A stretch of 64,000 bases of DNA from Candidatus Poribacteria bacterium. GTDB lineage: Bacteria > Poribacteria > WGA-4E > PCPOR2b. Shown here piece after piece: positions 1 to 48,572 of the stretch; the stretch's first letter is position 1, and each line of letters opens with the position of its first letter. The stretch is from contig OZ242351.1 in the NCBI GenBank assembly GCA_965208675.1, forward strand, positions 704,001-768,000. The letters run 5' to 3'. The notes under the pieces are model-generated. The model was not told the origin of the DNA. It made no database searches and worked only from the letters and a program-made list of their open reading frames with translations. The translations under genes were made by a program, and so were the position numbers.

Positions 1-108
1 CTTACCAAAAACATTCCTTTACACCGCAGGAAAAGACTAGGGCGTGTTGAGATTTTGGCGTTGCAAATGCAAAAAACGACTGCCTTATTTGCCAAATGCC
101 AAGAGAAC

Positions 109-43590: not shown

Positions 43591-44334
43591 ATGATACCTA
43601 CACCTGTCCTAGTGTCTTGGTCTTCAGGTAAAGACTCCGCATGGGCGCTCTACACGCTGCGCAAGCAGCCAGAACGTTATGACGTACGCGGAATATTTAC
43701 TACGATAACTAAGACATTTGATAGGGTTTCAATTCATTCTACACCATCGTGGATTTTAGAGCAGCAAGCCCAGAGATTAGACTTGCCACTGTACGAGATT
43801 CCTATCCCCTATCCCTGCTCTGACTCACAGTATGAGTCTGCTATGAGAGCGTTCCTTAATCAAATTCAGGAACTGCCCGCGGATATCGCCGCGTCACATC
43901 TTGCATTTGGAGACCTCTTCCTTGAGGACATTCGGAAGTATCGTGAGGAAAAATTGGTCGGGACGGGCTTCACACCGATTTTCCCGGTATGGGGGCAAGA
44001 CACCACATTACTTGCTCGAAGGATGATTGGGTCGGGAATGCGGGCGATTGTTACTGCGCTTAATCCAACCATGATACCAGCAGAATTCGCCGGCAAATGG
44101 TTCGATTCCAACTTTTTAGCGGACTTACCGGAGGAAGTAGACCCGCTGGGCGAGAACGGAGAGTTTCATACGTGTGTCGTTGATGGTCCGATGTTCAGCA
44201 GCGCTATTGCAGCCAAACCCGGAAGAATTGTAGAGCGAAAAATTGCCGCCGCTTCAAATGAAGGTGATGACCTAGACAACGCCGAAAATGTCTCCCCGGC
44301 GTACGTTTACGCTGACGTAGTTCCATTGACCTGA
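43591..44334 (+). CDS. PP-loop ATP pyrophosphatase (diphthamide synthase/MJ0570-like)
   Basis: SWSSGKDS, FGDLFLED, DPLGENGEFHT. Confidence 0.9.
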   Translation: MIPTPVLVSWSSGKDSAWALYTLRKQPERYDVRGIFTTITKTFDRVSIHSTPSWILEQQAQRLDLPLYEIPIPYPCSDSQYESAMRAFLNQIQELPADIAASHLAFGDLFLEDIRKYREEKLVGTGFTPIFPVWGQDTTLLARRMIGSGMRAIVTALNPTMIPAEFAGKWFDSNFLADLPEEVDPLGENGEFHTCVVDGPMFSSAIAAKPGRIVERKIAAASNEGDDLDNAENVSPAYVYADVVPLT

Positions 44335-45368: not shown

Positions 45369-47249
45369 TCAATTGCATGGGTTTATTACAGTCGACAATG
45401 TTTCAATGAGTTCATCAAGGTACACGTGCCGAAAGAACTCTGAAAGCCGCTTCTGCCTCGGTTTAATCGGGAGCAAAATAAAGTCTGCGCGGTAAACTTG
45501 GATGGATTCAAATACCATGCGGTAGGCGTGACTCGTGGCGTAGCCAACAACCAGCGCATAATTGTCGCCGTGTTTGTCGAGATAGGCGTTGAACCGATCG
45601 ACGCCCAACTGGATTTGCGAGATGTTTCTGGGGGACAACTGGAAATCGTAGCGCACGACGGGTTCTTCAGTTTCAAATTCTTCAGGTACTGGCCCGTAAA
45701 GCCCCGAAAGCGTAACCTTGTGAATCTCCTGTTGATTCTCTCCAAAAGCCGCTTTAAGCTTGGTATTGATGATAGCGTGCGTGCGGGACAGTGAATACGG
45801 CTTTTTCCCCGCACAGGGTATTGCCAATAGCACCTTCTTGTCCCTCGGCGGCACATAACTATCTGGAATGACAAAGGAATCTGGCGTGTAATCCAGCGAG
45901 AGGTTTGTCACTTCTTCTCGAGTGGCTGGGAATAGTTCCAGTTGATTCGGGTTTCTCCTACCCGCACGCCGGTTTACCGAGGCGGGGACTGCCGCAATCG
46001 TTCTTGCCATCCGGCTGGTAAATGATTCATCGTTAGCCATCAACCAGTCGATAGCCGCACGGATGCCGCGGCCAGATGAAGCATGCCGGCACAATTCTTC
46101 TAGCGCATCATCGGCTTCAATAGCTCGTTTCATGCGAGACAGCAGTTCTGCTTCCAACTCGAAATTATGTAAGGCAATTGCCGCGTAATATTCGCTCTTA
46201 TATTTTCCGGTCGAGGTCCGTTTATAGCTTGCCGCTTCCATTAAGGCGCCCTGCATCTCATCAAGCGAAACCTCGCTGCATATTCGGCAGGTACAAGTTA
46301 GCTCATCCAACTCCATTAGTTTTCGCTTTGCTCGGGTCAATGGATCCGCATAGTTGAGGCCGCGCGCCGCCTGAATATAACTAGTGCTGTCAAAGCTATC
46401 AATCCCCATGTATGCCAGGATAGGCGCGAGTTCGCCTGAGACCCCAAAAGCGTGGATGGGCGTATGTTGGCGTGCTGAATCCGGAATCGCCCTTTGAACC
46501 CCGCAGATTCGTTCTAGCACCTCCGAATCCTGCTTCCCGCGCAGCGGCACTAAGGAGCCAATCGCAAGCCCGAACGCGGGCAGCACGCCCATAAGACGGT
46601 CAAAAACCCTTTTGACATAATCTTCAATATCCGACTGCGACTGCCCATGGCAGCAAACGTATAAAAAGGGCGGTTGCGCTTTGGTTGAGAGCAAAGTTGC
46701 CACACGGCAGGCGTTCTCCAAACTGAGGCTCATCCGTTTTTCGGCTTCGGAGCGTTCTAGCCCCGGCGGTAACGGATAGTCTAAGGAAGCGAAGATTTCT
46801 CCGCCAACGTCCTCTTGGAGCGCAAGGATATCATCGGCTTCGGTTTCCTTTTCAATACCAAATTCCGTTAAGTCTAACCCCGTGCTGTAAAGCAACTTAA
46901 ATCCGCCGGAGTCAAGAAACAGCGGGGCATTGTAGGCACCGTTTACCTCTTGGTACCATTCACGAATGGTTTTGGTGCGCCACTTCGTTAAGATTTTCCC
47001 ATTGATCGGGAAGTCCAGAAAGTGGAGGACTTGTGATAACATCGGCGTGTCACGTTTCATAAAATCGCGGAGCAGATATTTCCAGAGACCTCCGCCACGT
47101 GGAGTTGAGCCGGTCATAAATGAAACCACCGGATACAAAATCGGTGTTGACAGTGGTGATAAAACTTCGCCATTCCGTCGCAATCGAAGTTCGCCAATTC
47201 TGCCGTTTTTTCTTTGAACACTCGTATGGTACGTTGGGATTGTGGTCAT
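45369..47249 (-). CDS. Archaeosine-TGT-like transglycosylase fused to a DUF5591/ArcS-like domain
   Basis: FLDSGGF, LDYP, AIGSLVP, PIHAFG, DSFDSTSY, CTCRIC...ALHN zinc site; C-terminal PCAGKKPYSLSRTH and SGLYGPVPEE. Confidence 0.85.
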   Translation of the reverse strand: MTTIPTYHTSVQRKNGRIGELRLRRNGEVLSPLSTPILYPVVSFMTGSTPRGGGLWKYLLRDFMKRDTPMLSQVLHFLDFPINGKILTKWRTKTIREWYQEVNGAYNAPLFLDSGGFKLLYSTGLDLTEFGIEKETEADDILALQEDVGGEIFASLDYPLPPGLERSEAEKRMSLSLENACRVATLLSTKAQPPFLYVCCHGQSQSDIEDYVKRVFDRLMGVLPAFGLAIGSLVPLRGKQDSEVLERICGVQRAIPDSARQHTPIHAFGVSGELAPILAYMGIDSFDSTSYIQAARGLNYADPLTRAKRKLMELDELTCTCRICSEVSLDEMQGALMEAASYKRTSTGKYKSEYYAAIALHNFELEAELLSRMKRAIEADDALEELCRHASSGRGIRAAIDWLMANDESFTSRMARTIAAVPASVNRRAGRRNPNQLELFPATREEVTNLSLDYTPDSFVIPDSYVPPRDKKVLLAIPCAGKKPYSLSRTHAIINTKLKAAFGENQQEIHKVTLSGLYGPVPEEFETEEPVVRYDFQLSPRNISQIQLGVDRFNAYLDKHGDNYALVVGYATSHAYRMVFESIQVYRADFILLPIKPRQKRLSEFFRHVYLDELIETLSTVINPCN

Positions 47250-47417: not shown

Positions 47418-48572
47418 TTAGTCACAATGGCTATAAATTTCGGATTTATAACTTCCCTGTGCCATTGGGTTTGTACGTTCAGACGAACGGCAAAATGAAC
47501 TTCTTGACAAATGTGGCCTTTTTGTAGAACGTCCATCAGATAGCTCACCAAGGCGTTTTCGCGCAATCCCGATATACGATTCTTCTTTCTCAATCATCAC
47601 CCATTTTCGGTTATTTTTTTCTGCGGCGACTCCGGTCGTCCCGGTACCGGAAAACGGATCTAGAATAAGGTCACTTTCATTGGTTCCCGCCAGGACAAGC
47701 CGTTCAACGATTTGAAGAGGCTTTTGTGAAGGGTGTTTTCCATATCTTCTTTCCGACGGTTTAGTTAGCGGTATTTCCCACATGTTCCGCATCTGCTTAT
47801 TATTATTCATTGATTTCATTGTATGATAGTTGAACGTCCAATTCTTCGCCTTCTTACTTTCATTGTTGACTGCCCATAAAATGAACTCTGTCGACTCCGT
47901 GAACATCCTACAGGTAATATTCGGCTGTGCATTCGGTTTATACCAGACGATTTGGGTAATAATCCGGCGGTCAAAAATATTTTGCATAATAAACCCAAGC
48001 GTGAAGATACTGTGAAACGAACCGAAAACAAAGATATTTCCATTTCGCTTGACGACTCGTAGAATTTCGGTGACCCAATCGAGCGTGAACTGAACATATT
48101 CGTCTTTTGAAAAAATGTCCCAACCCTCCTGCATGGTAACATGGGAACTAAACGCCCACCCCAACCCTTTCTTTTGCGACATGTTGAACGGCGGGTCGGC
48201 AATGCAACAATCGAAGACGCTGTCCGGCATTGAAGGCAGGATGCTCAGGCAATCGCCGTGTAAAATTTGCTTTACAGAAAGATTCTCGGGTGAGGTATCG
48301 GAAGGTAAGATTAAATCCGAATCTAATGGCGTGAATTGTAATTGATTTTCTGACAGGACTGCGGGTTCGGCGCTGTCGTCCGGATTGAGATCGAGATTCG
48401 GGCGAGTTGGATGATCCCCCGTCGCAATATACTGAATCAGTTGGGCTTTATTCAAATACGAATATCTTTTTAATCCACGTTTTTTCGCCTCCTTTCTCAA
48501 ATCTCTGTCTCGCATTCGGTCGAAATTCATTGGATAGCCCTTTCTCAATTCCATGTCAACTAGTCGCGCCAA
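47418..48572 (-). CDS. Beta-class N4/N6 DNA methyltransferase (DpnA-like) with N-terminal Rho_N-like domain
   Basis: ADPPFN precedes HPSQKP and LDPFSGTGTT; N-terminal DLRKEAKKRGLKRYSYLNKAQLI. Confidence 0.9.
   Translation of the reverse strand: MARLVDMELRKGYPMNFDRMRDRDLRKEAKKRGLKRYSYLNKAQLIQYIATGDHPTRPNLDLNPDDSAEPAVLSENQLQFTPLDSDLILPSDTSPENLSVKQILHGDCLSILPSMPDSVFDCCIADPPFNMSQKKGLGWAFSSHVTMQEGWDIFSKDEYVQFTLDWVTEILRVVKRNGNIFVFGSFHSIFTLGFIMQNIFDRRIITQIVWYKPNAQPNITCRMFTESTEFILWAVNNESKKAKNWTFNYHTMKSMNNNKQMRNMWEIPLTKPSERRYGKHPSQKPLQIVERLVLAGTNESDLILDPFSGTGTTGVAAEKNNRKWVMIEKEESYIGIARKRLGELSDGRSTKRPHLSRSSFCRSSERTNPMAQGSYKSEIYSHCD

Follow-up and report, generated by a model that had tools for sequence, protein, structure and literature searches.

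Proteins that dock on the bacterial DnaN beta sliding clamp, among them Pol III alpha, Pol IV, UmuC of Pol V, MutS, MutL, Hda and RecB, carry a five-residue Q-aliphatic-LF motif in an extended or disordered segment that binds the cleft between DnaN domains II and III. Extracts of two sources give the consensus as QL[S/D]LF, revised to Q-phi-x-[L/M]-[F/L], and name the LF ending as the one of highest affinity among clamp-binding motifs (PMC9690074; 10.1101/2025.08.20.671105). Here we analyze a 64,000-nucleotide stretch, the window, from a Candidatus Poribacteria bacterium (assembly GCA_965208675.1, contig OZ242351.1, positions 704,001 to 768,000), in which one gene encodes a TGT domain fused to the archaeosine synthase (ArcS) core domain DUF5591, with the peptide QLELF in the linker between them. 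The fusion resembles the clamp clients in its five-residue motif, in the disordered segment that holds it and, as modeled, in the predicted use of the domain II/III cleft; it differs in being a TGT-superfamily base-exchange enzyme joined to an archaeosine-synthase core, and in that its motif is flanked by a catalytic domain on each side and not placed at a terminus.

For the pairing of domains, a close described system is that of Vibrio phage nt-1, whose DpdA2 and ArcS2 make dG+ in DNA according to the extracts of PMC10516641. This system and the Dpd system (DpdA/B/C) pair a TGT-family protein with DUF5591, and by analogy the fusion may likewise insert preQ0 and convert it to archaeosine. The differences are that both predicted activities are here joined in one chromosomal bacterial protein and that its TGT domain resembles ArcTGT more closely than DpdA. 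With archaeal ArcTGT (TgtA) and ArcS, the fusion shares the TGT fold, the catalytic residues and the ArcS C1 core motif, but it has no PUA domain, scores below the cut-offs for both, belongs to a bacterial host and carries a clamp motif in its linker; the full four-domain architecture of ArcS, PUA included, is not found in it. A DNA-marking enzyme tethered to a clamp for newly replicated DNA is exemplified by Dnmt1-PCNA (extracts of PMC9690074), which differs from our proposal in clamp, motif, chemistry and domain of life, so that the likeness is one of working mode and not of descent. In the portions of the literature retrieved by our search, we found no description of a TGT-family protein or a bacterial DNA-modification enzyme as a clamp partner: the word "clamp" occurs 0 times in the text of PMC10516641, and the mentions of methyltransferases in the extracts of PMC9690074 concern eukaryotic Dnmt1-PCNA.

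We consider it probable that QLELF, with an N-P-x prefix, docks the TGT-ArcS-core fusion in the DnaN beta sliding clamp's hydrophobic cleft. From sequence and modeling, the fusion is probably a new predicted clamp client that uses a motif of an already known class.

QLELF in the interdomain linker

The fusion gene and its parts, all on the minus strand of the window, are as follows.

45369..47249, minus strand: gene for the 626-residue TGT + DUF5591 (ArcS-core) fusion (P0001), from the open reading frame (ORF), Pfam and homologues
46092..46934, minus strand: TGT (guanine-exchange) domain, residues 106-386 (Pfam PF01702, 3.4e-14)
45891..45998, minus strand: disordered interdomain linker, residues 418-453 (AlphaFold2 pLDDT <50)
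45930..45953, minus strand: N-P-x-Q-L-E-L-F, residues 433-440, the proposed DnaN beta-clamp-binding motif (conservation, co-fold)
45930..45944, minus strand: motif core QLELF, residues 436-440 (translation)
45501..45863, minus strand: DUF5591, the archaeosine synthase catalytic core (C1) domain, residues 463-583 (Pfam PF17884, 1.2e-13)
45777..45818, minus strand: PC-X3-KPY-X2-S-X2-H motif PCAGKKPYSLSRTH, P478-H491 (translation)

The reverse complement of positions 45930-45944 is CAA CTG GAA CTA TTC, which translates to Q L E L F in the context NPNQLELFP (longer context RRNPNQLELFPAT). Given the Pfam borders of TGT at residues 106-386 and DUF5591 at 463-583, QLELF sits between the two domains. 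In an AlphaFold2 model built with 21 aligned homologues, the mean predicted local distance difference test (pLDDT) score was 81 and both domains were confident. Residues 418-453 fell under 50, and we therefore read the linker as disordered; three 10-residue blocks across residues 421-450 had mean pLDDT of 34, 38 and 32, and the only secondary structure in residues 418-453 was a 3-residue helical turn at 425-427. A preliminary description, made from the sequence, had placed QLELF in a low-complexity linker between the two domains. Coordinates, translation, Pfam borders and AlphaFold2 agree on the interdomain position, while pLDDT and column entropy show that the linker is better called disordered and variable than low-complexity. 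QLELF fits both the QL[S/D]LF type and the revised Q-phi-x-[L/M]-[F/L] consensus, LF ending included.

To assess conservation of the motif in orthologue linkers, a check suggested in the preliminary description, we collected 440 homologues of the fusion (E <= 0.001) and used the best 120 of the 440 (63-93% identity), which formed 119 clusters. Residues were present at the motif columns in 94 of the 119 clusters, and 86 of the 119 kept the Q-phi-x-[LM]-[FL] consensus (69 QLELF, 14 QLDLF, 2 QFELF and 1 QLQLF). Column entropy was 0.17 bits at Q436, 0.46 at L437, 0.55 at L439 and 0.23 at F440, with 0.9 at N433 and 0.7 at P434 of the prefix, compared to 2-3 bits in the linker around them. NPxQL[E/D]LF is a conservation island within an otherwise variable linker.

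Across species-representative genomes, Q[LF]x[LF]F was found in the linker at 37 of 78 loci, down to 54% protein identity, and all 37 motif-bearing loci belong to Candidatus Poribacteria or to metagenome bins. Synonymous codons have turned over freely among these 37 loci, with Q encoded by CAA in 21 and CAG in 16, L437 by six Leu codons, and F by TTC in 21 and TTT in 16, which indicates selection on the peptide and not on the DNA. An overlapping nucleotide-level element as the cause of the conservation was ruled out by this turnover.

More distant relatives (<=47% identical) carry linker variants of the motif, namely QLPLPL (P0124), QLALF (P0125), QLSLF (P0126) and QVELF (P0175), and one has QLRLPL in its C-terminal tail (P0182); looser forms (QLSIF, QLRFAF and QLQFAF) occur near the C-terminus of distant relatives. 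We found the strict clamp pattern in 7 of 62 representatives of at least 500 residues, as against 1.36 +/- 1.09 in shuffled sequences, and 0 of 1000 shuffles reached 7; the figure of 7 of 62 is somewhat inflated by relatedness, as P0123 is from the query's own clade.

Probable docking on the sliding clamp

The preliminary description had also suggested co-folding of the peptide with DnaN. We performed this with the genome's own DnaN (L001:754-1857, minus strand; 367 residues, 33-row alignment) and fusion residues 416-462 (21-row alignment). The pair scored 0.71, compared to 0.00 for the best of 3 controls, and the motif was placed in the modeled cleft. The score mark we used passes 116 of 157 solved complexes and 2 of 215 mismatched pairs, a calibration that is rough here as our own alignments were used. 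The runs shared at least 66% of contacts, and partner pLDDT was at least 44. On the enzyme side, the interface comprised residues 432-433 and 435-440; on the DnaN side, it comprised residues 170, 172-175, 241, 243, 246, 276-277, 279, 317, 319, 343, 345, 359, 361-364 and 366, which we take, from E. coli numbering, to be the canonical domain II/III cleft and the C-terminal strand.

Conservation shows that the peptide has a function and does not identify its partner, and it is possible, if unlikely, that this is a real short linear motif whose partner is not DnaN: another protein with a hydrophobic groove, a subunit that partners the enzyme, or a contact within the enzyme itself or its dimer. Many clamp-peptide complexes have solved structures, so the co-fold result may be memory of these, and some members of the family lack the motif while keeping both domains, as would be seen for any accessory interaction. 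Against a partner other than DnaN stand the exact fit to the clamp consensus, complete with its preferred LF ending, the other canonical clamp variants, such as QLSLF and QLPLPL, in distant relatives, and the AlphaFold2 model, which packs the segment (pLDDT 32-38) against neither domain. We also considered a partner encoded in the same operon as the explanation of the motif and rejected it: no operon partner of the fusion gene is conserved, the recurrent neighbors being oxidoreductases, beta-propeller proteins and similar, and only 14 of the 37 motif-bearing loci have the methyltransferase described below as a neighbor.

To place the motif against its background frequency, we scanned the 3485 ORFs of at least 180 residues in this genome (1.42 million residues). 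Shuffling these ORFs gave a chance of roughly 1% for Q[LM]xLF in one 626-residue protein, so the occurrence of QLELF by itself is weak evidence and the weight rests on its conservation. A functionless chance match in the linker would be in keeping with this 1% and with a genome-wide count equal to the shuffle expectation. We regard it as very improbable nonetheless, as the low-entropy island in a high-entropy linker and the synonymous turnover across 37 loci, down to 54% identity, contradict it.

Among the 26 other ORFs with Q[LM]xLF, 10 encode replication, repair or modification proteins (DnaE, MutS, HolA, a family-4 uracil-DNA glycosylase, a Cas4-like nuclease, 2 SNF2 helicases and 3 N6_N4 methylases), and in each of these the motif falls outside the stretches that best match Pfam domains. 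Another 10 of the 26 are unrelated (2 TPR proteins, BamA, PhoX, GH116, a lactonase, an enolase-like protein, PMT_2, a hydrolase and SecY), and the remaining 6 are RpoA, a DUF488 protein and 4 ORFs with no family match. In DnaE, QMNLF separates the HHH and OB domains, and in MutS, QLALF lies in the C-terminal tail; the E. coli counterparts have their clamp motifs in these places, which speaks for DnaN as the partner of QLELF as well. As a control, we used the permuted pattern LFxQ[LM], for which 21 of 25 ORFs were examined (20 chosen in genome order and, in addition, the already annotated MutS), and found DNA enzymes in 4 of the 21 (PolA, GmrSD, HsdS and MutS). In both sets, regulators (LexA, sigma-70, RpoA) and proteins without assigned function were kept out of the tally of DNA enzymes. 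The enrichment of Q[LM]xLF in DNA enzymes is only suggestive.

Several of these proteins merit description in their own right. The motif lies in tails or linkers of DNA enzymes and of the DUF488 protein at eight loci (G000 loci L081, L085, L089, L090, L093, L095, L097 and L099), all outside the window except for the holA ORF, which reaches window positions 1-18. QLTLF forms the very last residues of the family-4 uracil-DNA glycosylase, and QLNLF follows the delta C-domain of HolA; further carriers are the two SNF2 helicases, the Cas4-like nuclease, which is of the PD-(D/E)XK type, a methylase fused to DUF559 and a second small methylase. The MutS protein (L080, G000:C1:494344-498177, outside the window) is 1277 residues long, its domain V being interrupted by an intein that carries a LAGLIDADG domain.

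A number of observations weigh against docking of the fusion on the clamp. The whole linker segment is deleted in 25 of the 119 clusters, which form a Poribacteria paralogue clade, and 8 of the 119 are off-consensus (QLDFF, QLEFF, QLEHF, LVEHF, QRFLI, QRYRI, QLQPF and one that is mostly gapped). Orthologues in Cyanobacteria, Chloroflexota and Planctomycetota mostly lack the motif, from which it follows that it is not essential to the enzyme. The co-fold shows likeness and carries no affinity information, in addition to being open to memory. In the genome scan, Q[LM]xLF occurred in 27 ORFs, compared to 23.5 +/- 4.8 matches in shuffled ORFs; with no excess to point to, we dropped a genome-wide surplus as a line of support. 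The enrichment in DNA enzymes (10 of 26 against 4 of 21) gave a one-sided Fisher p of 0.13. Finally, the second proposed motif of this locus, in the gene upstream of the fusion, did not hold up (see below).

As for the motif-less members, the short-linker Poribacteria paralogues are 62-67% identical to the query, and long-linker and short-linker paralogues coexist in several genomes (L016/L019, L035/L021, L004/L030 and L013/L047, the L047 fusion gene ending early, before the linker). Where its linker is readable, the short-linker paralogue has a conserved neighborhood of its own, with radical SAM/LAM_C, class-III aminotransferase and cyclophilin genes. The motif is dispensable to the fusion enzyme, given this paralogue clade and the orthologues of other phyla; the genome studied here has a single copy of the fusion, and it bears the motif.

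The gene upstream of the fusion encodes a DNA methyltransferase, with two features on the minus strand.

47418..48572, minus strand: CcrM-like N6_N4 DNA methyltransferase with an N-terminal extension (P0002; Pfam PF01555, 1.3e-49)
48333..48344, minus strand: QLQF, methyltransferase residues 77-80, in a linker; unconserved (translation, homologues)

This protein scores 222.6 bits with the NCBIfam CcrM model (cut-off 830), and an alternative gene call for it in this genome is 370 residues long (P0273). Of the 37 motif-bearing loci, 14 have a methyltransferase of this kind upstream; the closest relative (L002, 92% identity) lacks it. The preliminary description had pointed to QLQF in the methyltransferase linker and proposed that both enzymes are recruited by the clamp. 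The QLQF peptide is indeed present at 48333-48344, but we find no meaning in it: it was kept in 0 of 119 methyltransferase homologue clusters, whose members read QLQV, QTQF, PIQF, QMQA and the like, and its four residues depart from the 5- or 6-residue clamp consensus. As a consensus clamp-binding motif was also found in 0 of the 106 clusters that have an N-terminal extension, we rejected QLQF as a second clamp motif. The proposal that both enzymes are recruited thus fails for the methyltransferase; its half concerning the TGT-DUF5591 protein is favored by conservation, disorder, consensus fit and the co-fold.

Two other features of this methyltransferase family were observed. The N-terminal part of the protein contains a SAP/Rho_N-like module (KEAKKRGL..YS.LNKAQLIQY; window 48345-48530, compared with homologues P0274-P0392), which is doubled in a subgroup of the homologues that has precomputed Pfam hits PF02037 and PF07498. 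In addition, 46 of 106 homologues have a Q-less x-[L/I]-F peptide (DLTLF, ELPLF, SPT[L/I]F) some 20 residues ahead of the catalytic core, at the place where the window methyltransferase reads DLILP.

Catalytic domains and substrate

We next characterized the two domains of the fusion. An alternative gene call for it in this genome is 582 residues long (P0003) and starts at M45. Residues 1-44 of the 626-residue ORF (47118-47249) are covered by homologues and align with the first ArcTGT strands (GRIGEL...TP..PVV), so the 626-residue start is likely the true one. Among 23 diverse members of the fusion family, D113, D157, C319, C321, C324 and H361 are invariant and D284 nearly so; we take these Asp, Cys and His residues to be the catalytic and zinc residues of TGT structures. 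The nearest solved structure to the TGT domain is ArcTGT 1iq8, both by fold (Foldseek against PDB) and by profile (E 1.8e-30), and the DSGGF, LDYP, DSFDS and CxCxxC columns of the family profile match the corresponding 1iq8 positions. The 50 Foldseek matches listed were all tRNA TGTs and included no structure of ArcS or DpdA.

In the DUF5591 domain, which has a profile match to PDB 2q07 (AF0587), C479, K483, P484, Y485 and S488 are invariant in the same 23 members. Residues 478-491, PCAGKKPYSLSRTH, are an exact instance of the C1 motif PC-X3-KPY-X2-S-X2-H, defined as ArcS-specific in the extracts of PMC10516641 and PMC5699537. Of the curated models, only the tgt_general superfamily model was passed (58.6, cut-off 47.6). 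The fusion scored below the cut-offs of TgtA (ArcTGT; TIGR00432, 86.1 bits, cut-off 350), ArcS (NF040592, 85.6 bits over residues 463-584, cut-off 440), DpdA (NF041059, 24.9 bits, cut-off 200) and bacterial Tgt (20.6, cut-off 306.75), and the PADLOC DpdA model matched residues 166-295 only (E 2.2e-06). A Pfam search found no PUA domain in the fusion protein. Elsewhere, the same genome encodes QueC (257 bits) and, apart from the fusion, a canonical Tgt (541 bits); the queuosine modification of tRNA is therefore already provided for, and a supply of preQ0 is plausible.

Docking on the clamp would make DNA a reasonable inference for the substrate of the fusion, and QLELF thus gives indirect support to a DNA substrate. 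Four further observations are consistent with it: the lack of a PUA domain, the separate canonical Tgt, the CcrM-like methylase that adjoins the fusion in one clade, and the GmrSD_N genes of Cyanobacteria. The last of these came from the genomic neighborhoods, in which a GmrSD_N (DUF262) gene lies within 4 kb of a motif-less orthologue in 9 cyanobacterial loci (L052, L054, L056, L057, L058, L060, L061, L069 and L078); at L057, it starts 79 bases downstream of the fusion orthologue on the same strand. The GmrSD_N domain is typical of modification-dependent restriction enzymes, and this proximity is a hint of a pairing between DNA modification and restriction. Neither dpdB-K nor preQ0 genes were seen beside the fusion in the window or among its recurrent neighbors. 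On the other side of the fusion, a gene for a PP-loop ATP pyrophosphatase of the Dph6/PAB0415 type (Diphthami_syn_2; 43591-44334, plus strand) is convergent with the TGT gene, with one 244-residue ORF between them; the closest relative (L002) retains it and other loci do not, so that it is probably unrelated.

The nearest solved or curated relatives of the fusion (ArcTGT 1iq8 and the NCBIfam models of TgtA and ArcS) are all tRNA enzymes, the match to DpdA is weak (24.9 bits against a cut-off of 200), and metabolic genes surround the fusion gene at most Poribacteria loci. These points favor a tRNA-modifying analogue of ArcTGT and ArcS, for which clamp docking would be incidental and the motif silent on a DNA substrate. 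We think such an enzyme quite unlikely. Besides the fusion, this genome encodes a canonical Tgt (541 bits), and we know of no clamp client that acts on RNA. A tRNA enzyme also sits poorly with the CcrM-like methyltransferase at 14 of the 37 motif-bearing loci and the GmrSD_N genes within 4 kb at 9 cyanobacterial loci. The missing PUA domain is the RNA-binding domain of both ArcTGT and ArcS, and phage DpdA2 with ArcS2 produces dG+ in DNA, as given in the extracts of PMC10516641.

Possible replication-coupled modification in Poribacteria

If QLELF docks the fusion on DnaN and the substrate is DNA, the parts of the protein suggest how it could work. Clamps that stay on the DNA behind the replication fork would hold the enzyme on the newly made duplex, where the TGT domain, with its catalytic Asp residues and Zn site intact, would put a 7-deazaguanine base such as preQ0 in the place of guanine, and the DUF5591 domain, with its ArcS motif intact, would then turn the inserted base into an archaeosine-like base. 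With the protein docked, the long flexible linker on either side of the motif would give both catalytic domains access to the DNA. We put forward tentatively the wider proposal that Poribacteria couple DNA hypermodification to replication, with a clamp-riding TGT-ArcS-core fusion writing archaeosine-like 7-deazaguanine into newly synthesized chromosomal DNA.

A different N6_N4 DNA methyltransferase of this genome (L094, G000:C1:1568278-1569195, outside the window) has a conserved C-terminal tail, KQ[I/M/G]xLFESN, that follows a variable stretch. Methyltransferases of this type were found in 48 of the 61 genomes searched in the same order. Q-x-x-L-F was present in 26 of 30 tails (from this genome and L131-L160); the exceptions were QKTFF, QENFF, one tail without the motif and one with Q-x-x-L-F shifted by one residue. 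Judged by its sequence, the L094-type methylase looks like a second candidate for clamp tethering, and a better one than the methyltransferase of the window.

The TGT + DUF5591 fusion is a widespread, uncharacterized bacterial family, and its conserved peptide, a probable clamp-docking site, lies outside the catalytic domains and offers evidence of its own that the Poribacteria enzymes act on DNA at or behind the fork. If this is true, DNA base-exchange and modification enzymes would join the short list of bacterial clamp clients. Replication-coupled writing of the base would be a bacterial base-exchange counterpart of Dnmt1-PCNA, and clamp tethering may be a general strategy of DNA-marking enzymes in Poribacteria, for which the KQ[I/M]xLFESN tail of the N6_N4 methyltransferase and three further motif-bearing DNA methylases or nucleases in this genome can be offered.

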